Assembly (NCBI GenBank): GCA_032654565.1
Contig: JAULAX010000015.1
Location: forward strand, 512,001 to 576,000
Length of the DNA stretch: 64,000 nucleotides
Origin: Anaeromyxobacteraceae bacterium
GTDB lineage: Bacteria; Myxococcota; Myxococcia; Myxococcales; Anaeromyxobacteraceae
Reading direction: 5' to 3'
In this document: positions 10,005 to 64,000 of the stretch, in pieces
Numbering within the stretch: position 1 is the first letter of the stretch
How the letters are laid out: every line of letters begins with the position of its first letter
Notes under the pieces: generated by a model
What the model saw: the letters and a program-made list of their open reading frames with translations, nothing else
Told to the model about the DNA's origin: nothing
Databases searched by the model: none
Position numbers and translations under genes: made by a program

Positions 10005-10034
10005 TTGACTCGACCGGAAGCGCTCCGGTAAGGT
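10005..10034 (+). promoter_or_regulatory. Possible sigma70-type promoter of the tusA-hdrA-mvh operon
   Basis: TTGACT-18 nt-TAAGGT, about 60 bp upstream of the GAGGAGG/GTG start. Confidence 0.35.
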
Positions 10035-10092
10035 CACCCCTCGAATGGGGCGTCCTGCTTCGCCCCTTCGCCCTCGAGGAGGCTTCGACCAC

Positions 10093-10320
10093 GTGGCGAC
10101 CAACCTGACCAAGATCGACTGCATCGGGATGCGCTGTCCGCAGCCGGTCCTCAAGCTGGCCGTGGAGACCGCCGAGACCCCGGCCGGCACCGTCGTCGAG
10201 ATCACCGGCGACTGCCCCACCTTCGAGAAGGACATCCGGACCTTCTGCGAGCGGCGCAAGAAGACCCTGCTGGCGGTCCGCGCCGACGGGCAGAAGACGG
10301 TCATCCTCATCCAGTACTGA
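10093..10320 (+). CDS. TusA/SirA-family sulfur carrier protein
   Basis: IDCIGMRCPQPV (CPxP motif), 75 aa. GAGGAGG RBS before GTG 10093. Confidence 0.9.
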   Translation: MATNLTKIDCIGMRCPQPVLKLAVETAETPAGTVVEITGDCPTFEKDIRTFCERRKKTLLAVRADGQKTVILIQY

Positions 10321-10324
10321 TGGT

Positions 10325-12292
10325 GTGAGCCCGACGCCACCGCCCGGACCCGCCGCGGCCCCGCCCGAGCCGGCACCTGGCCGGATCGGCCTCGTCCTCT
10401 GCCGCTGCGGCCCCAACCTCTTCAACCTCATCGAGCTCGGCCCGCTCGAGGCCGCCGCACGCTGGCCCGAGGTGGCGGCGGTGGCGGTGCAGGGGGTCCT
10501 CTGCGGCGAGGAGGGGCAGGCCTGGCTGGCCGGCTGGCTGCGCGCCGAGCGGCTCGACCGGCTGGTGATCGCCGCCTGCTCGCCGCGGGAGCACGAGCTG
10601 ACCTTCCGCGCCGTGATGGCCCGGGCCGGGCTCAACCCCTACCTGCTGCAGCTGGTCAACCTGCGCGAGCAGGTGGAGTGGATCGGCGGCGAGCCGGAGG
10701 CGGCCACCGCCCGCGCCGAGCGGCTGATCCGCGCCGGGCTGGCCCGGGTGGCCCACCACCGGCCCCGCGAGCAGCGCACCGCCGACGTCAACGCCGACGT
10801 GGTGGTGGTGGGCGGCGGGGCGGCCGGGGTGGCGGCGGCGCTGGGGCTGGCCCGCAAGGACCGCAAGGTGCTGCTGCTGGAGCGGTCGCCGGCGCTGGGC
10901 GGCCTGGCGGCGCAGCTCGACGAGATCTTCCCCGACCACGTCTGCGCCTCCTGCTTCCTCGAGCCGGCGCTCGACGAGGTGCTCCACCACGACCGCGTCG
11001 AGGTGGTCACCGGGGCCACGGTGACGCGGGTGCGCGGCGCGGCCGGCGCCTTCGAGGTCACGGCGGCGCTGGCGCCCCGCTTCGTCGACGGCGAGCGGTG
11101 CATCGGCTGCGGCCAGTGCAGCCTGCTCTGCCCGGTGGAGGTGGTCGATCCCTGGGCCGCCGGGCTGGGGCGGCGAAAGGCCATCGCCGCCGCCTACCCG
11201 GGGAGCCTGCCGCACGTGGCGGTGCTGGACGCCGCCGCCTGCCTGCACCACCGCGACGGCAGCTGCGACGCCTGCCAGGTGGGCTGCGGCTTCGACGCCA
11301 TCCGGCTCGACGCCCGGGCCGAGGAGCGGACCTTCCACGCCGGCGCCCTGGTGCTGGCCACCGGCTTCCTGCCCGGGCCGGTGGCCGGCCCGCCCGGCGT
11401 CCTCTCCAGCTGGCAGCTGGAGCGGCTGCTCCACCCCGGCGGCCCCACCGGCGGGCAGCTCGCCCTGGCCGGCCGCCCCGCGCCCGCCTCGGTGCTGCTG
11501 GCCTCCACCGCCGGCGACGCCGACGGCCCCCTGCCGTCGCGCGAGCTGCTCAAGCTGGCGCGCGGCCTGCGCCGCCGCTGGCCGGCGCTGGCGGTGGCGG
11601 TGGCCGGGGGGCTCTCGCGGACGCCGGGGCTGCACGCCGAGGCCCGGGCCGCGGCCGAGGAGGGGGTGGAGCTGCTCGAGGAGGAGCTGCGGCCGGACGG
11701 GCTCGGGTCCGACGGCGGCGCGGTGTCGGCGCGGCTGGCCAGCGGGCTCCTGGAGCAGGAGCGGCGCTTCGACCTGGTGGTCCTCCACGCCGCCTCGACG
11801 CCCGCCGACGGGGCCGCGGCGCTGGCGGGGCTGCTGCGGCTCGACCGCGACGCCCGCGGCTTCCTCACGGAGGGGTCGGCCAACCCGTTCGAGCCCACCG
11901 CCACCCGCCGGGCCGGCGTCTTCGTGGCCGGGGCCGCCGCCGGGCCGCGCTCCATCCGCGAGGCCATCCGCGACGGGGCCGCCGCCGCCGGGCGGGTGCT
12001 GGCCACGCTGGTGCCGGGCGAGCGGCTGGCGCTCCAGCCGCTGGCCGCCGAGATCGATCTCGCCACCTGCGGCGGCTGCGGCACCTGCGTCGCCACCTGC
12101 CCGTACCACGCCGTGGTCCGCGACCCGGTCACCCGGGCGCTGCAGGTCGAGCCGGCCGCCTGCCACGCCTGTGGCGGCTGCGCCGCCGCCTGCCCCACCG
12201 GCGCGGCCAGCGCCCCCCACGCCACCCGCGCCCAGCTGGCCGCCGAGATCTCGGCGCTGCTGGCCGCCGCCCGGCCCGGGGCCACGCCGTGA
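10325..12292 (+). CDS. hdrA: Heterodisulfide reductase subunit A-like flavoprotein (FAD, 4Fe-4S)
   Basis: N-terminal CRCGPN..AACSPREHE..VNLREQ, FAD motif VVVGGGAAG, IFPDHVCASC, inserted and C-terminal ferredoxin CxxCxxCxxxCP pairs. Confidence 0.9.
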   Translation: MSPTPPPGPAAAPPEPAPGRIGLVLCRCGPNLFNLIELGPLEAAARWPEVAAVAVQGVLCGEEGQAWLAGWLRAERLDRLVIAACSPREHELTFRAVMARAGLNPYLLQLVNLREQVEWIGGEPEAATARAERLIRAGLARVAHHRPREQRTADVNADVVVVGGGAAGVAAALGLARKDRKVLLLERSPALGGLAAQLDEIFPDHVCASCFLEPALDEVLHHDRVEVVTGATVTRVRGAAGAFEVTAALAPRFVDGERCIGCGQCSLLCPVEVVDPWAAGLGRRKAIAAAYPGSLPHVAVLDAAACLHHRDGSCDACQVGCGFDAIRLDARAEERTFHAGALVLATGFLPGPVAGPPGVLSSWQLERLLHPGGPTGGQLALAGRPAPASVLLASTAGDADGPLPSRELLKLARGLRRRWPALAVAVAGGLSRTPGLHAEARAAAEEGVELLEEELRPDGLGSDGGAVSARLASGLLEQERRFDLVVLHAASTPADGAAALAGLLRLDRDARGFLTEGSANPFEPTATRRAGVFVAGAAAGPRSIREAIRDGAAAAGRVLATLVPGERLALQPLAAEIDLATCGGCGTCVATCPYHAVVRDPVTRALQVEPAACHACGGCAAACPTGAASAPHATRAQLAAEISALLAAARPGATP

Positions 12293-13755
12293 GCCCCGCC
12301 CCGCGCATCGTCGCCTTCCTCTGCGAGTGGTGCGCCTACGCCGCCGCCGACAAGGCCGGCGCCTCGCACCAGCCCTACCCGCAGACGCTGCTCACCGTGC
12401 GCGTCCCCTGCACCGGGCGGGTCGAGCCGGCCATGGTGCTGCAGGCCTTCCGCGAGGGGGCCGACGGCGTGCTGGTGGGCGGCTGCCACCCCGGCGACTG
12501 CCACCACGTCGACGGCAACCTGCGGGCGGCGGCGCGGCTGACGCTGCTCGGCCGGGCGCTGGAGCAGGCGGCCATCCCGCCGACCCGGCTGCGGGTGGAG
12601 TGGGTGGGGGCGGCCGAGGGGGCGCGCTTCGCCGAGGTGGCGACGCAGCTGACCGCCGAGCTGGCGGCGCTCGGGCCGCTCGACTACCCGGGGCGGGCCC
12701 TCCACTCCATCGACGACGCCCTGCAGGTGGCGCCGTCGCGCCTGCACCAGCTGGAGGAGGCGGGCCCGGCGCCGCGGGCGCCCGGCAAGCCGCGGGTGGC
12801 CTTCTACTGGAACGCCTCCTGCGGCGGCTGCGAGGAGGCGGTGGTCGACCTCGGCGAGGGCTTCGCCGAGCTGGCGGCCCGCGTCGAGATCGTGCTCTGG
12901 CCGGTGGCCCTCGACACCAAGAAGGCCGACGTCGAGGCCATGCCCGACGGCCACATCGACGTGGCCTTCCTGAACGGCGCCATCCGGCTCGACGAGCAGG
13001 ACCACTGGGCGGTGCTGCTGCGGCGCAAGGCGCGCACCGTGGTGGCCTTCGGCGCCTGCGCCCACCTCGGCGGGGTGGTCGGCCTCGGCAACCTCTCCGA
13101 GCCGGAGGCGCTGCTCACCACCGCCTACCGCGACCAGCCGAGCGTCTCCAACCCGCAGCAGGTGCTGCCGGGGCGGCCGGTGCAGGCCGGCGGCCACGAG
13201 ATCACGCTGCCGGCGCTGCTCTCCCGCACGCTGCCGCTGGGGGCGGCGGTGCCGGTGGACTTCACCATCCCCGGCTGCCCGCCCTCGCCCGCCGTCATCG
13301 GGGCGGCCGTCGACCTGCTGCTCGGCGGAGGAGCGCTGCCGCCGCCGGGGTCGGTGCTGGCGCCCAACGCCTCGCTCTGCGACTCCTGCCCGCGCAACGG
13401 CTCGCGCCCGGAGCGGCTGCAGCTCACCGCGCTGGCCCGGCTCGCCACCACCCAGCCTGACGAGGCCACCTGCTTCCTGGCCCAGGGGCTGGTCTGCCAC
13501 GGGCCGGCCACCCGCCAGGGCTGCCAGCCCGGCTGCGTCGAGGCCAACATGCCCTGCCGCGGCTGCTTCGGGCCGCTCGACGGCGTGGTCGACGGCGGCG
13601 CCGCCATGCTCTCGGCCTTCGCCTCGCTCTTCGCCGGCGATCTCGCCACCCAGCGGGCCATGGCCGAGAGCCTCCCCGATCCGGCCGGCACCTTCTGGCG
13701 CTACGGGCTGGCGGCGGCGCTGCTGCCGCGGCGCCTGCCGGAGCGCGCGCCATGA
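12289..13755 (+). CDS. mvhD/mvhG: Fused MvhD (2Fe-2S) and MvhG ([NiFe] hydrogenase small subunit)
   Basis: IVAFLCEWCAYAAAD..VRVPCTGRV..GGCHPGDCHH (MvhD), then in frame YWNASCGGCEE..AFGACA..IPGCPP..CFLAQGLVCHGP..PCRGCFGP (MvhG). GTGA overlap with hdrA. Confidence 0.92.
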   Translation: MSPAPRIVAFLCEWCAYAAADKAGASHQPYPQTLLTVRVPCTGRVEPAMVLQAFREGADGVLVGGCHPGDCHHVDGNLRAAARLTLLGRALEQAAIPPTRLRVEWVGAAEGARFAEVATQLTAELAALGPLDYPGRALHSIDDALQVAPSRLHQLEEAGPAPRAPGKPRVAFYWNASCGGCEEAVVDLGEGFAELAARVEIVLWPVALDTKKADVEAMPDGHIDVAFLNGAIRLDEQDHWAVLLRRKARTVVAFGACAHLGGVVGLGNLSEPEALLTTAYRDQPSVSNPQQVLPGRPVQAGGHEITLPALLSRTLPLGAAVPVDFTIPGCPPSPAVIGAAVDLLLGGGALPPPGSVLAPNASLCDSCPRNGSRPERLQLTALARLATTQPDEATCFLAQGLVCHGPATRQGCQPGCVEANMPCRGCFGPLDGVVDGGAAMLSAFASLFAGDLATQRAMAESLPDPAGTFWRYGLAAALLPRRLPERAP

Positions 13756-15236
13756 CGCGACGGATCACCATCGACCCCATCACCCGGCTGGAGGGGCACG
13801 GCAAGGTGGAGATCCTGCTCGACGAGCAGGGGAACGCCCAGCACGCCTTCCTGCAGGTCCCGGAGCTGCGCGGCTTCGAGCGGTTCTGCGTGGGGCGCCC
13901 CGTCGAGGAGATGCCGCAGCTCACCGCCCATGTCTGCGGGGTCTGCCCGGCCGCCCACCACCTGGCCTCGGTGCGGGCCCTCGACGCCCTCTCCGGCGTC
14001 ACCCCGCCGCCGGCGGCGCTGGCGCTGCAGCGGCTCTACTACGACCTCTTCATCTTCGAGGACCACCTCCTCCACTACTGGTACATGGGCGGGCCGGACT
14101 TCATCGTCGGCCCCAAGGCCCCGGCGCCGCTGCGCAACATCCTCGGGGTGCTGGCCCGGGTGGGCGAGTCGCTGGGCAAGCGCATCCTCTCGGTCCGCAA
14201 GGAGGCGCGGGACCTGATGGCCGCCATCAGCGGCCGCACCGTCCACCCGGTCTTCGCCCTCCCCGGCGGCTGCTCCCGCCCCATGCCGGCCGAGGCGCTG
14301 GCCCAGCTGCGCGAGGCGGCGCCGCGGCTGGTGCAGTTCTCGGTGGACACGCTGGCGTCGTTCCGGGCGGCGGTGCTGGAGCAGCGCGAGTACCTCTCGG
14401 CCATCGGCAGCGAGGTCTACCGGCTGCGGACCCACTCGATGGGGATGGTGGACGAGGCCGGGCAGCTCACCTTCCTGGACGGCACGCTGCGGGTGATCGA
14501 CACCGGCGGCGCCGAGACGCTGCGCTTCGCGCCGCGCGACTACCTCGAGCACCTGGCCGAGCGGGTCGAGCCCTGGACCTACGCCAAGTTCACCTTCCTG
14601 AAGTCGAAGGGGTGGACCGGATTCACCGAGGGTGACGAGAGCGGCCTCTACCGGGTCGGGCCGCTGGCCCGGCTCAACGTGGCGACCGCCATGGCCACGC
14701 CGCTGGCCGAGGCGGAGCGGCAGCGGCTCTTCGGGACCCTGGGCTGGCCGGCCCACCAGACCCTGGCCTTCCACTGGGCCCGCCTGGTCGAGGCGCTGCA
14801 GGCGGCCGAGCGGGTGGCGGCGGCGGTGGACGACCCGCTGCTGGCCTCGCGCGACGTCCGCAACGTGCCCCGGCCGCTCACCGGCCCAGCCGAGGGGGTG
14901 GGCGTGGTCGAGGCCCCGCGCGGCACGCTCATCCACCACTACCGGTGCGGCGCCGACGGGCTGCTCACCGCGGTCAACCTGGTGGTGGCCTCGCAGCACA
15001 ACGCCGCCCCGGTGCAGGTCTCGGTCCGCAAGGCGGCGCGCGGCCTGATCCGCAACGGGGTGGTCAACGACGGGCTGCTCAACCAGCTGGAGATGGCCTT
15101 CCGCGCCTACGACCCGTGCAACGCCTGCGCCTCCCACGCCCTGCCGGGGGAGCTGCCGCTGCTGGTGACGGTGAAGGACGCGCGCGGCGCGGTGGTCGAG
15201 GTGCTCCGGCGGCGGGTCCCCGAAGAGCAGCCGTGA
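13752..15236 (+). CDS. mvhA: [NiFe] hydrogenase large subunit, group 3c (Mvh-type)
   Basis: ITRLEGHG, ELRGFERF, L1 xVCGVC, EAPRGTLIHHY, L2 RAYDPCNACASH followed by a cleavable extension. Confidence 0.93.
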   Translation: MTRRITIDPITRLEGHGKVEILLDEQGNAQHAFLQVPELRGFERFCVGRPVEEMPQLTAHVCGVCPAAHHLASVRALDALSGVTPPPAALALQRLYYDLFIFEDHLLHYWYMGGPDFIVGPKAPAPLRNILGVLARVGESLGKRILSVRKEARDLMAAISGRTVHPVFALPGGCSRPMPAEALAQLREAAPRLVQFSVDTLASFRAAVLEQREYLSAIGSEVYRLRTHSMGMVDEAGQLTFLDGTLRVIDTGGAETLRFAPRDYLEHLAERVEPWTYAKFTFLKSKGWTGFTEGDESGLYRVGPLARLNVATAMATPLAEAERQRLFGTLGWPAHQTLAFHWARLVEALQAAERVAAAVDDPLLASRDVRNVPRPLTGPAEGVGVVEAPRGTLIHHYRCGADGLLTAVNLVVASQHNAAPVQVSVRKAARGLIRNGVVNDGLLNQLEMAFRAYDPCNACASHALPGELPLLVTVKDARGAVVEVLRRRVPEEQP

Positions 15237-15244
15237 GAGGCCCG

Positions 15245-15760
15245 GTGGCGCCCACGCCCACGCCCGAGACCTCGTCCCTGGCCGCTGCACCGGGGCGGCG
15301 CGGCGCCCTGCTGGTCCTCTGCCTGGGCAACCCGCTGCGGAGCGACGACGCCGTGGCGCTCCACGTGGCGCGCCTGCTCGAGGCGGCCCCGCTGCCGGGC
15401 GTGACCGTCAAGGTGAGCGCCCGGGCCGGGCTCTACCTGCTCGACGACATGGAGGGGTTCGACCGGGTGGTGGTGGTCGACGCCATCCAGACCGGCCAGC
15501 ACCCGCCCGGCACCGTCCACCAGCTCCCGCTCGAGGCGCTCCACTCGCCGGCCGGGCCGTCGCCGCACGCCGTGGGGCTGCCCTCGGCGCTGGCGCTGGC
15601 GCGGGCCGCCGGGGCGCCGGTGCCGGAGCGGGTGGAGCTGGTGCTCATCGAGGCCGAGGTGATGGACCTGGTCGGCGAGGGGCTGACGCCCGGGGTGGCG
15701 GCGGCGGTGGGGCCGGCGGTCGAGGCGGTGCGGAGGGCGTGCGAGCGGCTCAGCCGGTGA
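15245..15760 (+). CDS. Hydrogenase maturation protease
   Basis: LCLGNPLRSDDAV, VVVVDAI, SPH motifs. Last gene of the operon; start codon uncertain. Confidence 0.9.
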   Translation: MAPTPTPETSSLAAAPGRRGALLVLCLGNPLRSDDAVALHVARLLEAAPLPGVTVKVSARAGLYLLDDMEGFDRVVVVDAIQTGQHPPGTVHQLPLEALHSPAGPSPHAVGLPSALALARAAGAPVPERVELVLIEAEVMDLVGEGLTPGVAAAVGPAVEAVRRACERLSR

Positions 15761-49485: not shown

Positions 49486-50493
49486 CGTGGCCATGACAGC
49501 GCGCAGCGCTTCGGCCAGCGCCTCGGGGTCATCGACGCGGAGGCCGAGGACCTCGGCCCGACGGCGCAAGCCGAAGAGGCCGGCCACCTCCACCGGCGCT
49601 GTGAGGTGGACGTAGAGCAGGGGTGGGCCGATCGGGGAGAGCCGCAGCGCGCGGGCGTGGCCGCGCGCATCCGTGCCGAGGCAGACGGCCCGGACCGCCG
49701 CCAGCGGCACGCTCACTCGCCAGCGCAGCCCCACGCGGACCACCAGCGTGTCGGCCGAGAGCAGCACAGGCCGCAGCACCACGGCGCGGAAGTCGCCCAC
49801 CAGCCAGACCATGCCGTAGAGCCCCACCGCGGTGGCGACCCAGGCCCAGCGCGTGCTCCACTGGGCCACCAGCAGGTGGGTGCCAATGAGCTCGCCGACG
49901 CCAGCCATGGCGATAGCCACCACCACCGCGCCGAAACCGGACCGGCGGTGGATGGTGAAGGCGCGCCATCCTTCAGGAGCGTCCGGGGCACGGCGCCACG
50001 ACGCCAGCGCCAGCCAGAGGATGGCCGCCTCGGTGGCCAGCGCCTCCACGACGCGTGAAGGTCCCAGCGCCTCGCGGGCCGCCTCGCGCAGGGCGTCCTC
50101 GGGCGGCAGCCCGCGGCCCGTGGCGCGCCAGGCCCGCGCCAGCCGGGCCGCCCTCCACGCCAGCACGCCCAGGAAGGCCGCCTCGCCGAGCCCCGCCAGC
50201 GCCAGCAGCCAGGGGCGTGATCCGCTGGCCAGCAGGCGGCCCGCCATGGCGGCTCCGGTGGCAAAGACGGCCGCCAGCGTGACGGCGCCCGACGCGCCGG
50301 TCCTCACCAGCGTGAACCAGCAGAGGAGGGTGGCGGTGACGGTGAGATCGAAGGCCACCGCGGTCGCCAACGCGTCGGGGTGGCGGGCGAACGCGCCGGA
50401 GTGGAGGGCCTGCCAGGACGCCCAGAGAAGCAGGGCGATTCCCGCCAGGAAGGCGGGGTAGGGGTGACGGTGCACCGTGGTCACGCCAGCCAT
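49474..50493 (-). CDS. Hypothetical multi-pass membrane protein
   Basis: 6-7 hydrophobic segments and a soluble C-terminal domain (VRVGLRW..LRVDDPEAL). Confidence 0.7.
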   Translation of the reverse strand: MAGVTTVHRHPYPAFLAGIALLLWASWQALHSGAFARHPDALATAVAFDLTVTATLLCWFTLVRTGASGAVTLAAVFATGAAMAGRLLASGSRPWLLALAGLGEAAFLGVLAWRAARLARAWRATGRGLPPEDALREAAREALGPSRVVEALATEAAILWLALASWRRAPDAPEGWRAFTIHRRSGFGAVVVAIAMAGVGELIGTHLLVAQWSTRWAWVATAVGLYGMVWLVGDFRAVVLRPVLLSADTLVVRVGLRWRVSVPLAAVRAVCLGTDARGHARALRLSPIGPPLLYVHLTAPVEVAGLFGLRRRAEVLGLRVDDPEALAEALRAVMATSAR

Positions 50494-50544
50494 CGTACCC
50501 AAACTTCGCCCCGCTTCGCCGGACTTGTGCTCTGCTCCTCAGCC

Positions 50545-51642
50545 ATGCGGAGCGAGGAGATCAGGACGCAGCGCGAGCGCCACGGCCGCAAGGCGGTGGC
50601 GGTGCTCCCCATCCACTACCCGAAGGCGCTGCTCACCGGGCTCGACCTGCTGGCGGTGGAGCTCTGGGGGCCGCCCGGCCCGCCGCGCGGCGACCAGGCC
50701 GGGCGCATCCAGGCCTACGTCTGCGCGGTGGTCCGCAACGCCCTGGCCTTCCTGGCCGGCGGCCACGCCGACGCCGTCGACGGCGTCCTCTTCCCCCACA
50801 CCTGCGACTCGCTCCAGCAGCTGGCCACGCTGGCCACCGATCTCGGCGGCTGGAAGAAGCCGGCCTTCACCTTCCTCCACCCGCGCGGCCCCGACCGGCC
50901 CAGCGCCCGACGCTTCCTGGAGGCGGAGCTGCGCCGGCTGGCCGGGACGCTGGAGGCGCTGGCCGGCCGCCCCCTCACCGACGAGCGGCTGGCGGCGGCG
51001 CTGGCGCTCCACGCCGAGGTGGACGCGGCGCGGGCGGCGCTGCTCGAGGCCCGGGCCCGGCTGCCCATGGACGACACCCGGCTCTACGCGCTGCTGCGGC
51101 GCGGCGAGTGGCGCTGGCCGGCCGACCACCTCATCGAGCTGCGCGCGGCGCTGGCCACGCTGGCCGACCGGCCGGTGCAGCGGGGCCTGCCCATCCTGGT
51201 GACCGGCTACGTGCCGGAGCCGGCGGCGCTGCTCGGCACGCTCAACCAGGCCGGCGCCTACCTGGCCGCCGACGACTACGCGGCGGTGGGGCGGCGGGTG
51301 GTCCGGGCCGCGCCGGCCCCGTCGGCCGACCCCTGGAAGACCCTGGTGGACCTGCACTTCGCCGCGCCCCCCTGCCCCACCCGCGCCGCCGACACCGCCC
51401 CGCGCATGGCCCACCTGGCCGGGCTGGCGGAGCGGAGCGGGGCCCGCGGCGTGCTGGTCCACGTGCAGAAGTTCTGCGAGCCGGAGCTCTTCGACGTGCC
51501 GGTGATCCGCGAGACCTTCGCGGCCCGCGGCCTGCCGGTGCTGGTGCTGGAGGGGGAGCTGGAGGGGACGCTCTCCGGCCAGGCGGTGACCCGGCTGGAG
51601 GCCTTCGTGGAGCTGCTGGGTGCGGCCGGGAGGGCGGCGTGA
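50545..51642 (+). CDS. 2-hydroxyacyl-CoA dehydratase / benzoyl-CoA reductase family subunit (HgdB/BcrC-like)
   Basis: IQAYVCAVV, FPHTCDSLQ, QKFCEPELFD, TRLEAFVE. Confidence 0.88.
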   Translation: MRSEEIRTQRERHGRKAVAVLPIHYPKALLTGLDLLAVELWGPPGPPRGDQAGRIQAYVCAVVRNALAFLAGGHADAVDGVLFPHTCDSLQQLATLATDLGGWKKPAFTFLHPRGPDRPSARRFLEAELRRLAGTLEALAGRPLTDERLAAALALHAEVDAARAALLEARARLPMDDTRLYALLRRGEWRWPADHLIELRAALATLADRPVQRGLPILVTGYVPEPAALLGTLNQAGAYLAADDYAAVGRRVVRAAPAPSADPWKTLVDLHFAAPPCPTRAADTAPRMAHLAGLAERSGARGVLVHVQKFCEPELFDVPVIRETFAARGLPVLVLEGELEGTLSGQAVTRLEAFVELLGAAGRAA

Positions 51643-52955
51643 TCTGGCGGCGCGCCCAGTACGAGGTGGCGGGGCGGGTGGCCTTCCCCATGCTCACCGC
51701 GCTCGAGGGGTGGCAGCGCCGGCTCAAGGGCTCGCGCCGCAGGCCGGGGGGCGGGCCGTTCGGGCCGCCGCTGGAGTCGGTGGGCAAGCTCAAGGAGCTG
51801 ATGAGCCACCACTACTTCCAGGGGCGCTACGCCGACGGCGCCGTCCCGGTGGCCTGGGTGAGCAGCGGCTTCCCGGTGGAGATCCTGCGGGCCGCCGGCT
51901 TCCACACCGTCTACCCGGAGAACCACGCCGCGCTCTGCGGCGTCTCCCGCCTGACGCCGGAGTACTCCGACGTGGCCGAGGCCCGCGGCTACTCGCGCGA
52001 CCTGTGCAGCTACGTGCGCACCGACCTCGGCAGCCTGCTCTCGGGGAAGACGCCGGTGGGGCGGCTGCCGCGCCCGCAGCTGCTGGCCTGCTGCACCAAC
52101 ATCTGCCAGACCGTCCTCTACTGGTACCGGGAGCTGGCCCGCCACCTCGACGTGCCGCTGGTGCTCGTCGACACGCCCTTCGTCCACGGCGCCGCCTCGC
52201 CGCACCAGCTGGCCTACGTGGAGGAGCAGCTCGAGGAGCTCTGCCTGGTGGCGGGGCGGGTGAGCGGCCGGGGGCTCGACGCCGGGCGGCTGGCCGAGGT
52301 GACCCGCACCGCGCAGGAGGGCTCGCGCCTCTGGGGCGAGTGCCTGGCCGCCAGCCGGGCCCGGCCCGCCCCCTGGACCGGCATCGACGGCTTCTTCCAC
52401 ATCGCCCCCATCGTCACGCTGCGCGGCAGCGAGGCCTGCAACGACTACTACCGGCTGCTGCGCGACGAGCTGAACGACCGGGTGGCGCGCGGCGTGGGCG
52501 GCTTGAAGGAGGAGAGGCACCGGCTGCTCTGGGACAACCTGCCGGTCTGGTTCGCGGTGCGCCGCTTCTCGACGCTGCTGGCCGAGCGCGGCTTCAACTT
52601 CGTCTCCACCAGCTACACCAACGCCTGGGCCGAGGCCGGGGTGGGGATCGATCCCTCCGATCCGGTCGGCTCGGCGGCGCGGACCTACACCCACATCATC
52701 CTCAACCAGGACCTGCCCAACCGCCACGGCATCCTGCGCCGGCTCTCCCGCGACTACGGCGTGGACGGCGCCATCCTCCACAGCGACCGCTCCTGCAAGC
52801 CCTACTCGATCGGCCAGGTGGACCTGCGCGAGCGGCTGGCGGCCGAGCTGGGGATCCGGGTGCTGCTGCTGGAGGCGGACCACAACGACCCGCGCTCCTG
52901 GGCGGCCGAGCCGGGCGAGAACCGGCTGGCGGCCTTCATGGAGGGGTTCGAGTGA
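51639..52955 (+). CDS. 2-hydroxyacyl-CoA dehydratase family subunit (HgdA/BcrB-like)
   Basis: YPENHAA, GYSRDLCSY, CTNICQTV, HSDRSCKPYS, EADHND..RLAAFME. GTGA coupling. Confidence 0.9.
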   Translation: MIWRRAQYEVAGRVAFPMLTALEGWQRRLKGSRRRPGGGPFGPPLESVGKLKELMSHHYFQGRYADGAVPVAWVSSGFPVEILRAAGFHTVYPENHAALCGVSRLTPEYSDVAEARGYSRDLCSYVRTDLGSLLSGKTPVGRLPRPQLLACCTNICQTVLYWYRELARHLDVPLVLVDTPFVHGAASPHQLAYVEEQLEELCLVAGRVSGRGLDAGRLAEVTRTAQEGSRLWGECLAASRARPAPWTGIDGFFHIAPIVTLRGSEACNDYYRLLRDELNDRVARGVGGLKEERHRLLWDNLPVWFAVRRFSTLLAERGFNFVSTSYTNAWAEAGVGIDPSDPVGSAARTYTHIILNQDLPNRHGILRRLSRDYGVDGAILHSDRSCKPYSIGQVDLRERLAAELGIRVLLLEADHNDPRSWAAEPGENRLAAFMEGFE

Positions 52956-53770
52956 CGGCGGCGGCCAGCGGCGGGGCGGGCGGGGCGGGCGGGGTGGGGG
53001 GCGGCGCGGCCATCGGCGTCGACGTGGGGAGCACCTCCTGCAAGGTGGTGCTGGTGGACGGGGCCGGCCGGTTGCTGGCGAGCCTGCTCGAGCCGACCCA
53101 CCCGCGCACCGAGGAGCAGACCGGGCGGCTGGTGGCGGCGCTGCGGGCCGAGGCCGGGGCCGAGCTGCCGGTGGGGGCGACCGGCTACGGCCGCAAGCGG
53201 GTGGTGGCGGCGCGGGTGCTCACCGAGATCACCTGCCACGCCCGCGGGGCCCACGCCCTGGCCGGCGGCGGCGGGCTGCTGGTGGACATGGGCGGACAGG
53301 ACACCAAGGTGATCGCCATCGGGCCGGGCGGCGAGGTCACCGACTTCTCCATGAACGACAAGTGCGCCGCCGGGACCGGGCGCTTCCTCGAGGTGATCCT
53401 GGCGCGGCTGCAGGTGCCGCTGGCCGAGGTGGCCGCCACCGCGGCCCGGGCCGGGGCGCCGGTGACCGTCTCCAGCACCTGCACCGTCTTCGCCGAGAGC
53501 GAGGTGATCTCGCTGGTGGCCGAGGGGCGACCGGTCGAGGGGATCGTCCGCGGGCTGCACGTGGCGCTGGCCTCGCGGGTGGCGGCGCTGGCGCGCGGCC
53601 GGCTCGGCGCCGGGCCGGTGCTGCTGAGCGGCGGGGTGGCGCTCAACGTCGCCATGGTGACGGCGCTGGCCGAGGCGCTGGGGCGGCCGGTGCAGGTGCT
53701 GCCCGGGCCGCAGCTGGTGGGGGCGCTGGGGGCGGCGCTGTCGGTGCTGCCCCGCCCTGCCGGGTCCTAG
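52952..53770 (+). CDS. CoA-substrate-specific enzyme activase (HgdC/BadG type, ATP-dependent 4Fe-4S)
   Basis: GVDVGSTSCK, ATGYGR, TEITCHARG, DMGGQDTK, MNDKCAAGTGRFLE, SSTCTVFAESEVIS. Confidence 0.95.
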   Translation: MTAAASGGAGGAGGVGGGAAIGVDVGSTSCKVVLVDGAGRLLASLLEPTHPRTEEQTGRLVAALRAEAGAELPVGATGYGRKRVVAARVLTEITCHARGAHALAGGGGLLVDMGGQDTKVIAIGPGGEVTDFSMNDKCAAGTGRFLEVILARLQVPLAEVAATAARAGAPVTVSSTCTVFAESEVISLVAEGRPVEGIVRGLHVALASRVAALARGRLGAGPVLLSGGVALNVAMVTALAEALGRPVQVLPGPQLVGALGAALSVLPRPAGS

Positions 53771-61952: not shown

Positions 61953-63782
61953 TCAGCGCCCCTCCTGGGCGAGGACTTCCTCGGTGACGCTGCGGGCGTC
62001 GAGCGGCATCCCGGTGAGGTGGGCCACCGAGCGCAGCCGCCCCACCAGCGACGGGTCGAGGTCGAGCGTGAGCAGCGAGAGCAGCTGGGCGTCGCGATCC
62101 TGCTCGACCACGTAGACCCGGTCGTGGGCGGCCACGAAGTCGCGGACCGCGGCGGCGAAGGGCCAGGCCCGCACCCGCAGGTAGTCGGCCGGGAGCCCGG
62201 CCTCGGCGTGGAGCTGGGCCAGGGCCTCGCGCACCGCCGGGTCGGAGGAGCCGTGGGCCAGCAGGCCGATCCGGGCGCCGGCGCCGGTGACCACCGGCGG
62301 GGGGAGCGCGGCCCGGGCCCCCTCGAACTTGCGGCGCAGCCGCGCCATGTTCTTCTGGTAGACGTCGGAGCGCTCGCTGTAGCCGGCCTGCTCGTCGTGG
62401 CCGGTGCCGCGGGTGAAGTAGGCGGCCTTCGGGTGGTCGGTGCCCGGCAGCGTCCGCCAGCCGATGCCGTCGCCGTCGACGTCCTTGTAGCGGGCGAAGC
62501 CGCCCAGCCGCTCCAGGTCGGCCTTCCCGAGCACCTTGCCGCGGTCCAGCGGCGTCTCCGGGTAGGGGAGCGGGTCGGCCATCCAGTTGTTCATGCCGAG
62601 GTCGAGGTCGGAGAGGACGAAGACCGGGGTCTGGAACCGCTCGGCGAGATCGAAGGCCTGGCCGGTCATGGTGAAGCACTCCTCCACCGAGCCGGGGAAG
62701 AGCAGCAGCTGCTGGGTGTCGCCGTGGGAGAGGAAGGCGGTGGAGAGCAGGTCGCCCTGCGAGGTCCGGGTGGGCAGGCCGGTGGACGGCCCCACCCGCT
62801 GCACGTTGACGATCACCGCCGGCACCTCGGCGAAGTAGCCGAGGCCGGCGAACTCGGCCATCAGCGAGACGCCCGGGCCGCTGGTGGCGGTCATGGCCCG
62901 GGCCCCGGCCCAGCCGGCGCCGATCACCATGCCGATGGCGGCCAGCTCGTCCTCGGCCTGCAGCACCGCGAAGGTGGCCTGGCCGTCGGCGGTGCGCCGG
63001 TGCTCCTCGAGGTAGCCGTGCAGCGACTCCACCACCGAGGTGGAGGGGGTGATGGGGTACCAGGTCACCACGGTGACGCCGGCGAAGAGGGCCCCCAGCG
63101 CCGCGGCGGCGTTGCCGTCGATGATGATCTTGCCGCGGGTGGCGTCCATGCGCTCCACCCGGTAGGGGTCGCGCTTCTCGACGCCGGCGGCGTGGGCCAG
63201 CCCGGCCTGGATGGCGCGCAGGTTGAGCGCCAGCGCCTTGGGCTTGGCGCCGAAGACCCGCCCCAGGGCCGCCTCCACCTCGGCGACCTCGAGGCCGAGC
63301 AGGCCGGCCAGGACGCCGACGTAGACCATGTTGCGCAGCAGCTTGCGCAGCCGGGCGTCGGCGCTGACCGGCGCCACCAGGTCGTCGAAGGGGACCGGGT
63401 AGAAGGCCAGGTCGGAGCGCAGCGACTCCAGCTCCAGCGGGGCGTCGTAGACCACCACCGCGCCCGGCCGCAGCCCGGCGACGTCGTCGCGGGCGGTCTC
63501 GCCGTTCATGGCCACCAGCACGTCGACGTCGCGCTGGCGCGCCACCCACCCATGGCGGGAGACGCGGATGGTGTACCAGGTGGGAAGCCCGGCGATGTTG
63601 GAGGGGAAGAGGTTCTTCCCCGAGACCGGGATGCCCATCTGGAAGAGGGTCCGCAGCAGCACGGTGTTGGCGCTCTGCGAGCCCGAGCCGTTGACGGTGG
63701 CGACCTGGATGGAGAAGTCGTTGGTGACGGCGCGCGCGCGCGGTGCCACCCGGCGCGTCGCCTCGAGCTCTGCGGTGGTCAT
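61953..63782 (-). CDS. 2-oxoacid:acceptor oxidoreductase alpha subunit (fused gamma-alpha)
   Basis: NGSGSQSAN, WYPITPST, QAEDELAA, TSGPGVSLM, QRVGPSTGLPT. Confidence 0.95.
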   Translation of the reverse strand: MTTAELEATRRVAPRARAVTNDFSIQVATVNGSGSQSANTVLLRTLFQMGIPVSGKNLFPSNIAGLPTWYTIRVSRHGWVARQRDVDVLVAMNGETARDDVAGLRPGAVVVYDAPLELESLRSDLAFYPVPFDDLVAPVSADARLRKLLRNMVYVGVLAGLLGLEVAEVEAALGRVFGAKPKALALNLRAIQAGLAHAAGVEKRDPYRVERMDATRGKIIIDGNAAAALGALFAGVTVVTWYPITPSTSVVESLHGYLEEHRRTADGQATFAVLQAEDELAAIGMVIGAGWAGARAMTATSGPGVSLMAEFAGLGYFAEVPAVIVNVQRVGPSTGLPTRTSQGDLLSTAFLSHGDTQQLLLFPGSVEECFTMTGQAFDLAERFQTPVFVLSDLDLGMNNWMADPLPYPETPLDRGKVLGKADLERLGGFARYKDVDGDGIGWRTLPGTDHPKAAYFTRGTGHDEQAGYSERSDVYQKNMARLRRKFEGARAALPPPVVTGAGARIGLLAHGSSDPAVREALAQLHAEAGLPADYLRVRAWPFAAAVRDFVAAHDRVYVVEQDRDAQLLSLLTLDLDPSLVGRLRSVAHLTGMPLDARSVTEEVLAQEGR

Positions 63783-63963
63783 GACGACGGGGTCCACTTT
63801 CCGGGACGGGACGGAGCCGCGTCGCCGCCGGAGAGTTAGCCGGGAGCGCCCCCGATTGCCCCTCACACGGGCGCAGAGCGTTCGTTGACCCCCGCGAGGG
63901 GCGTGCCGGCCGCCGCTCCGGTCCACGAAATTCCGGCCGGCGATCCGCGTAGGGAAGGGGGAG

Positions 63964-64000
63964 ATGGCCACCTTCCTGCTCTGGATCATCCTCTTCGTCG
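63964..64000 (+). CDS. Start of a hydrophobic hypothetical protein, runs off the window
   Basis: GGGGAG RBS then MATFLLWIILFV. Confidence 0.5.
   Translation, partial: MATFLLWIILFV

Follow-up and report, generated by a model that had tools for sequence, protein, structure and literature searches.

The operon described here lies in a 64,000-nucleotide stretch of an Anaeromyxobacteraceae bacterium (GenBank assembly GCA_032654565.1, contig JAULAX010000015.1, positions 512,001 to 576,000), referred to below as the window. Its five genes encode a TusA-family protein, HdrA, an MvhD-MvhG fusion, MvhA and a hydrogenase maturation protease (Table 1). The tight coupling of these genes in this order, reported in the initial annotation, was confirmed: the five reading frames are open, lie on the same strand and are separated by 4, -4, -4 and -4 nt. 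Comparison with related loci suggests that the operon probably belongs to a TusA-coupled signalling module that has not been described.

Table 1. Features of the tusA-hdrA-mvh operon (positions in the window)
Feature	Position	Strand	Remarks
Sigma70-type promoter-like site	10005-10034	+	TTGACT-N18-TAAGGT; upstream of tusA
tusA ribosome site	10076-10082		GAGGAGG
tusA	10093-10320	+	75 aa; PF01206 2.3e-17; CPQP; two-cysteine (YedF-like) type
hdrA	10325-12292	+	655 aa; distinct clade with SPREHE and CASC motifs; flavin adenine dinucleotide (FAD) fold
HdrA C207-x-x-C210	10943-10954	+	equivalent of the Cys202/Cys205 pair; 120/121 sequences; invariant in 57/57 aligned rows
Former HA4 loop, cysteine-free	11477-11569	+	aligned to 5odc C386, C399, C403, C404
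HdrA K410 (= Lys409)	11552-11554	+	kept in 121/121 sequences
mvhD-mvhG fusion	12289-13755	+	488 aa; PF02662 at 7-129, PF01058 at 178-341
mvhA large subunit	13752-15236	+	494 aa; PF00374; best NCBIfam model VhuA, 8e-101
Hydrogenase maturation protease	15233-15760	+	TIGR00072, 116.7 bits (cut-off 47.45)

The host genome is 98.3% complete, and its placement in Anaeromyxobacteraceae also follows from the labels of homologues. The absence of hdrB and hdrC, reported earlier for the window, was found to extend to the whole genome. The TIGR03288 (HdrB) profile gave no match anywhere in it, window included, while TIGR03290 (HdrC) gave a single sub-threshold match, located in a membrane Fe-S oxidoreductase. 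The four CCG proteins of the genome scored 19-31 bits on an HdrB profile, compared to 260-406 bits for full-length HdrB, and were recognized by sequence and context as LutA-like and other Fe-S oxidoreductases. The HdrA of the operon was the sole HdrA found in the genome. A search for the hyp genes, suggested in the initial annotation, located a hyp cluster outside the operon (HypD by family search; its neighbours were read as hypB/E/C/F from the sequence), and a second, uptake-type hydrogenase is encoded elsewhere.

HdrA aligned end to end with methanogen HdrA (phmmer against 5odc_A, 3e-94), and its AlphaFold2 model, with a predicted local distance difference test score (pLDDT) of 90.3, gave 5odc_A as the best Foldseek match. 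Conservation was assessed in 121 sequences, comprised of the query and the best 120 of 194 matches. All 22 cysteines of HdrA were kept in at least 115 of them, including the CxxC pair, whose methanogen equivalent, Cys202/Cys205, sits between the MvhD [2Fe-2S] cluster and FAD according to recent cryo-electron microscopy (PMC13580544). Also retained were E366 (120/121 sequences) and K410, the counterpart of Lys409, which contacts flavin N5 (PMC6405883, PMC13514486).

The situation is different in the loop aligned to C386, C399, C403 and C404 of 5ODC (numbers counted off the alignment), where the query and its homologues have no cysteine in 120 of the 121 sequences and a single one in the remaining sequence. 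We take these four residues to be the HA4 ligands. HA4 is described as the exit of the high-potential electron toward HdrB (PMC12350162, PMC13580544). In three genomes of genus g3 (L059, L060, L023), an in-frame deletion of approximately residues 358-490 has removed the whole second Rossmann (HA4) domain, leaving an HdrA of ∼500 aa, and the neighbouring mvh genes remain. This domain was the least conserved part of HdrA in comparisons of the proportions of nonsynonymous (pN) and synonymous (pS) differences. The second-domain loop reads SVLLASTAGD and is not the glycine-rich NAD(P) loop of the HdrL type. Because the HA4 ligands are gone, while the other ligands are intact and pN is lower than pS, the complex appears to be maintained but not to bifurcate in the known way. 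Classic bifurcation by this HdrA is therefore unlikely, and a bifurcating form of the ferredoxin-reducing system considered in the initial annotation does not agree with the loss of the HA4 ligands or with the deletion of the whole domain in one genus.

To place the operon, GTDB was scanned with two HdrA motifs, which yielded 134 relatives, and the best 80 were used (34 loci of Anaeromyxobacteraceae type and 46 distant loci). The distant loci carry the labels Nitrospirota, Desulfobacterota-type deltaproteobacteria, Planctomycetota, Verrucomicrobiota (Opitutales, Victivallales), Ignavibacteriota, Acidobacteriota, Pseudomonadota and unassigned bacteria. TusA was encoded beside the clade HdrA in 76 of the 80 loci, across eight phyla and in at least five gene orders, and three of the four loci without it end at a contig edge. 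No tusA was present in 32 control loci centred on hdrB. HdrB was found in none of the 80 clade loci, even where HA4 is intact, and in the HdrA tree 12 HdrBC-linked controls formed their own branch with a support of 1.0. These comparisons indicate that the module is a member of a wide HdrBC-independent HdrA clade and not of the bifurcating HdrABC family. They also bear out the initial description of a stripped-down, HdrBC-less MvhAGD-HdrA module, as does the genome search, and identify TusA, proposed there as a partner, as a fixed neighbour of the clade HdrA. Two observations had been named as contrary evidence, namely hdrBC elsewhere in the genome and homologous operons with hdrBC but without tusA. 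No hdrBC in trans was detected in this genome or in the module-bearing family genomes searched, and the homologous operons showed the opposite pattern, with tusA kept and hdrB absent.

The HA4 cysteines were kept in 40 of the 46 distant loci, lost in three and unreadable in three, while 31 of the 34 family-type loci had 0-1 cysteine and the remaining three lacked this stretch. Losses of HA4 could not be counted on the HdrA tree, whose backbone is too weak. A tie between HA4 loss and genomic loss of HdrB was likewise rejected: the 18 of 46 distant genomes without an HdrB match are mostly HA4-intact, and the three HA4-less distant genomes carry 3-7 HdrB copies.

Within the family, 34 of 81 genomes contained clade HdrA and TusA together, two HdrA alone, two TusA alone and 43 neither; clade HdrA was missing from 45 (four genus-g9 matches of 35-40% identity were scored as canonical HdrA). 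HdrB occurred in three of 61 family genomes, all of the module-less genus g9, and in none of the module-bearing Anaeromyxobacteraceae searched. In one genome (G017:C49; L211/L134) the orthologous site consists of tusA and the protease gene only; hdrA, mvhDG and mvhA are missing, and no clade HdrA was found in that genome. Cultured hosts include A. dehalogenans, whose 60%-identical HdrA was among the homologues, A. oryzae and Oryzomonas japonica.

For all five genes pN was below pS in all seven comparisons (uncorrected proportions), with the two values near equal for HdrA sub-regions at larger distances; for MvhA, pN was 0.03-0.05 and pS 0.17-0.19 relative to four close relatives. The pattern of the promoter-like site upstream of tusA, TTGA[CT]-N18/19-TAnnnT, was present at most 200 nt from tusA in 23 of 31 Anaeromyxobacteraceae loci, compared to one of 984 control windows, the pattern having been derived from the same loci on which it was counted. 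A strict sigma70 consensus scan did not call the site at 10005-10034. Because the sigma70-type site recurs in family loci, the operon appears to have its own promoter, and it is probably its own transcription unit downstream of rpoN-hpf-ptsN. Routine co-transcription with these genes was considered and judged unlikely, given the conserved promoter in between, though a few loci have gaps of less than 65 nt. One metatranscriptome contained only short contigs of relatives (the longest listed were 180-350 nt, ∼86-94% identical) and no transcript of this operon.

Taken at the level of sequence, the operon is real, intact and under purifying selection. This bears on the possibility that it is a decaying remnant of an mvh-hdrABC operon, as might be suspected from the lost HA4 ligands, from the poor conservation of the HA4 domain and its deletion in genus g3, from the site reduced to tusA and the protease gene, and from the many family genomes without clade HdrA. 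Against decay stand the low pN of the five genes, the retention of all 22 HdrA and all 17 MvhDG cysteines, the conserved promoter, and the lack of HdrB beside clade HdrA even where HA4 is intact, and we regard it as extremely improbable.

All 17 MvhDG cysteines were invariant in 32/32 full-length rows, and all Fe-S cysteines are present. MvhA contains the motifs TRLEGH, AHVCGVC (L1), EAPRG and DPCNACASH (L2), as well as a C-terminal extension. The L1/L2 nickel ligands, the MvhG/MvhD Fe-S ligands and the linked HdrA are features of group 3c (MvhAGD) enzymes. The best NCBIfam models were VhuA, VhuG and VhuD, all below their methanogen cut-offs, and MvhA matched VhuA far above other large-subunit models, which does not agree with a group 2 large subunit. 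At L1 (TAHVCGVC, window 13923-13946), His takes the place of the customary Arg in all MvhA sequences of Anaeromyxobacteraceae type that were read, and one distant subgroup has Lys at this position. The His could alter the NiFe site. In two Nitrospirota-type genomes (L094, L097), there is an in-frame TGA at the second L1 cysteine of mvhA, possibly specifying selenocysteine at an unusual ligand position.

TusA carries two cysteines, C15 (CPQP) and C41 (DCPTF), both invariant in 57/57 aligned rows. Its AlphaFold2 model (pLDDT 90.6) was most similar to TusA 3lvj_C in a Foldseek search (TM score 0.88). The DCP motif is shared with E. coli YedF (1je3), while E. coli TusA has DDP; the protein reached neither the TusA nor the YedF equivalog cut-off, and has the CPxP motif, the TusA fold and the YedF-type second cysteine. 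In tusA-first loci TusA is more conserved than HdrA (79-93% versus 54-83% identity). No copy of this TusA was found in a plasmid search, and a search of the ESM Atlas returned TusA clusters only. Fusions of TusA to an output domain were uninformative, with a single 144-aa match among 141 candidates.

A second two-cysteine TusA, 66% identical, is encoded in this genome (G000:C15:17433-19187), 60 bp ahead of a gene for a membrane protein with an EAL-like domain (read from the sequence). The EAL gene is absent at the corresponding site in G001 and G012. Beside this paralogue (G000:C15:8305-17006) are genes for a 1648-aa YD/RHS-repeat-like and a 1308-aa Ig-like repeat protein, also read from the sequence. 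Three TusA paralogues of genus g3 lie tail-to-tail with a sigma54 regulator, and two precede an aminotransferase-like gene. With contexts so mixed (EAL, sigma54 regulator, aminotransferase-like, none), the paralogues were rejected as a guide to the signalling output of the family.

The genes flanking the module were then analyzed by a Pfam scan of 88 proteins, hand-picked from ∼360. The families identified were chemoreceptors, PAS hybrid kinases, HPt-REC-GGDEF proteins, CheW/B and RsbR/S/T/U sets. A signalling gene was present in 35 of the 46 distant loci (1.54 per 10 kb), compared to nine (0.82 per 10 kb) of the 26 hdrB regions taken from these genomes. The signalling profiles were built from hits in the test loci, which they therefore favour, and many of the loci are related to one another, so that the counts are not independent. 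Six of the nine positive hdrB regions represent one related cluster. In 31 of the 46 distant loci the signalling gene was located at most 400 bp from the module. Among the top neighbour clusters of the 80 loci no sulfur-metabolism gene recurred, except for a DsrE-like gene in ∼4 related loci, and no flx-like cluster was among the recurring neighbours listed (no genome search for flx was made).

The RsbR, chemoreceptor and kinase genes located directly 3' of tusA in 16 loci encode a common 59-residue HAMP-like repeat. It matched five ordinary HAMP domains with 91% probability in hhalign, while the Pfam HAMP model recognized only two of 22 members (E ∼0.09). A search of 1.8 billion proteins returned 648 representatives, the best 150 of which comprised 70 kinases, 17 chemoreceptors, 10 GGDEF and two STAS proteins, and 51 proteins without a recognised output. 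A search of 50 genomes revealed the repeat in 19, of which 12 carry it solely in the gene behind the tusA of the module. A reverse search showed that seven of 301 genomes from the phylum of G336 carry the repeat, five of which had not been found through HdrA; this TusA was encoded directly upstream in all five, at six of seven repeat genes. One of the reverse-search genomes encodes TusA three times, once at hdrA and twice ahead of repeat proteins, while in another the best HdrA is canonical and the TusA is without the second cysteine. Six metagenome loci with the full module and a repeat kinase represent one lineage and add little weight.

TusA and the regulator also remain together where the module is divided. 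In G646, G345 and G349, TusA copies precede repeat-bearing regulators away from the hydrogenase, and in two Myxococcota genomes (G146 and G051) tusA and rsbRST are kept together, with hdrA-mvhA elsewhere. In one of the latter (L203, G146:C60) the tusA-rsbR-rsbS stressosome set is followed by a hypF-like gene, and in another locus (L206, G061:C207) such a set is preceded by a DsrE-like gene; both were read from the sequence. The repeat kinases of L065 (13162-13420) and its relatives start with a Cys-rich N-terminal domain of ∼85 aa, with no Pfam call among the five families shown. In the family itself the sole pointers to an output are the paralogue ahead of the EAL gene, found in this genome alone, and a 77%-identical TusA copy in G381 (L256, G381:C334), 33 bp ahead of a kinase and sigma54-type regulator pair that is followed by mvhD, two Fe-S genes and an hdrA-like gene. 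Further along the window lie genes for a 2-hydroxyacyl-CoA dehydratase D-component with a BcrAD/BadFG activator (50380-53770, + strand) and for the alpha subunit of a 2-oxoacid:ferredoxin oxidoreductase (61953-63989, - strand), so that the window also encodes users and makers of ferredoxin.

The distribution of TusA bears on the view that it serves as a maturation factor, as a sulfur donor for Fe-S clusters or for the ligand on the CxxC pair, of an ordinary and possibly bifurcating Mvh-Hdr complex. TusA-family proteins do affect Fe-S and cofactor assembly (PMC11094781), and an unidentified ligand was described on the equivalent Cys pair of methanogen HdrA (PMC13580544). However, tusA is missing from all 32 hdrB control loci, the genome is without HdrBC, the HA4 ligands are absent, and TusA goes with the regulator when the module splits. 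A maturation role thus seems very unlikely, and the Fe-S sulfur donor proposed in the initial annotation is not supported either, given the same control loci and the association of TusA with signalling genes in split modules.

The most likely reading, to which we give an even chance, is that the operon encodes a non-bifurcating MvhAGD-HdrA complex passing the H2/redox state of the cell to the two-cysteine TusA as a signal carrier. MvhA would oxidise or evolve H2, and MvhG and MvhD would relay electrons between it and HdrA, at the CxxC pair and FAD of the latter, as suggested by the intact ligands and the solved methanogen complexes. With the HA4-HdrC-HdrB exit gone, electrons would not be split toward a heterodisulfide. 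HdrA may then set the thiol, disulfide or persulfide state of C15/C41 of TusA, which in one of these states would bind a regulator. The linked regulators in distant relatives, encoded behind tusA, are a chemoreceptor, a hybrid kinase or an RsbR stressosome protein with the HAMP-like repeat, while in this genome the regulator would be non-adjacent. This sensory role, favoured by the neighbourhoods, was not among the options of the initial annotation, which also did not include the loss of the HA4 ligands, the second conserved cysteine of TusA or the conserved sigma70-type promoter.

Several observations weigh against this reading, in addition to the bias and kinship in the neighbour counts. Among the 34 family-type loci, a single one has a signalling gene at a distance of up to ∼8 kb, and none is adjacent here. 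Of the distant genomes, 27 of 46 lack the repeat, which was found neither in this genome nor in any module-bearing genus among the 81 family genomes. G012 retains a TusA paralogue without a clade HdrA. The full catalytic motifs, the protease and both ferredoxin domains have been kept, as expected for a metabolic enzyme. The sensory reading therefore appears good for the clade and is an extrapolation for this genome.

The retained catalytic features would also fit a metabolic enzyme, either a non-bifurcating H2:ferredoxin oxidoreductase or a redox valve, in which HdrA acts as an Fe-S/flavin wire linking ferredoxin to the hydrogenase and TusA as an accessory subunit, with the signalling neighbours controlling only expression. 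The remaining clusters of HdrA and the full set of Mvh ligands are intact, the genome has six matches to the 2-oxoacid:ferredoxin oxidoreductase family besides a separate uptake-type hydrogenase, and the operon persists in genus g3 although the HA4 domain has been lost there entirely. For Ca. Symbiobacter mobilis, whose Mvh-HdrA likewise has no HdrBC, a role in proton reduction has been proposed (PMC4053972). Such a valve leaves unexplained the conservation of TusA above that of HdrA, the TusA copies before repeat-bearing regulators away from the hydrogenase, and the chemoreceptor neighbours, since chemoreceptors do not control transcription. We consider it unlikely, but worth keeping in mind. 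A reading along the sulfur branch of the initial annotation, in which H2 would drive the reduction of persulfide on TusA or of polysulfide for sulfur metabolism or detoxification, TusA would stand in for HdrBC and no signalling would be involved, has the same redox chemistry as the step of the sensory reading in which HdrA acts on TusA. The CPxP cysteine bears sulfane sulfur in sHdr-linked TusA (PMC11094781), and the DsrE-like gene upstream of tusA in L206 would suit this function. However, apart from the ∼4 related DsrE-like loci, the recurring neighbours are regulators and not sulfur genes, which makes a purely sulfur-metabolic role decidedly improbable.

The methanogen MvhAGD-HdrABC complex (group 3c; PDB 5ODC, 8RVU) resembles the module in the fold and length of HdrA, the CxxC pair, Lys409 and the MvhD/G/A ligands, but here HdrB/C and the HA4 ligands are lacking, MvhD and MvhG are fused, and TusA is a fixed neighbour. 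The Mvh-HdrA of Ca. Symbiobacter mobilis (PMC4053972) also lacks HdrBC, and its locus tags (Mvh 2144, 2145, 2148; HdrA 2147), judged from the tags alone, fit the mvhG-mvhA-protease-hdrA-mvhD order of many loci. Unlike in our reading, its authors propose confurcation of NADH and ferredoxin to H2, and the main text does not mention TusA/SirA. Adeh_4162 and Adeh_4163 of A. dehalogenans 2CP-C (PMC2330069), very likely orthologous to the hydrogenase and the delta-gamma fusion, are described solely as an F420-reducing-type hydrogenase, and the word 'heterodisulfide' is absent from the main text. The A. dehalogenans hydrogenase with its fusion and an HdrBC-less Mvh-HdrA are thus already in print.

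The sHdr system of sulfur oxidisers with TusA/DsrE (PMC11094781; PDB 6TJR) likewise has an HdrA-like flavoprotein encoded with TusA. However, sHdrA has 349 aa and occurs with sHdrB/C, while the 655-aa HdrA described here is encoded with a hydrogenase and without HdrB. The defining cluster, a short sHdrA with sHdrC1B1/C2B2 or B3, was not observed: HdrA is full-length, and none of the 80 loci contains HdrB (no search for LbpA was made). HydDB (PMC5037454) recognizes kinase-linked [NiFe] group 2b, putatively diguanylate-cyclase-linked group 2c and [FeFe] group C as sensory hydrogenases and lists group 3c as bifurcating only. If the sensory reading holds, the module would work as these enzymes do, its hydrogenase genes lying with those for kinases, cyclases or chemoreceptors (31 of 46 distant loci, one of 34 family-type loci), and would differ from them in that its core is a group 3c-type enzyme joined by HdrA and a small thiol protein. 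No HA4-less HdrA, TusA-linked Mvh-HdrA or sensory group 3c enzyme was found among the titles and abstract starts returned by searches of the open literature, the scope being papers outside subscription.

More tentatively, and with somewhat less than even confidence, we propose that the clade represents a new type of H2 sensor, in which a group 3c-HdrA complex no longer tied to heterodisulfide reduction would imprint the availability of H2 on a diffusible two-cysteine TusA messenger, read by a dedicated HAMP-like domain on chemoreceptors, histidine kinases, diguanylate cyclases and stressosomes in at least eight phyla. The Anaeromyxobacteraceae would have streamlined this system, dropping HA4 (in one genus the whole domain) and signalling to an unlinked regulator. 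The sensory idea aside, HdrA occurs naturally in three states: with HA4 present, with the HA4 ligands lost but Lys409 and the CxxC pair retained, and with the domain deleted. This series allows a direct test of flavin reduction in HdrA and of its working without a high-potential exit. Bacterial group 3c enzymes with HdrA are routinely annotated as electron-bifurcating energy enzymes. Since the clade HdrA is encoded among regulators and away from HdrBC, this label may be mistaken in many genomes from soil, sediment and groundwater, and, if the proposal is true, anaerobes may sense H2 by an unrecognised route.

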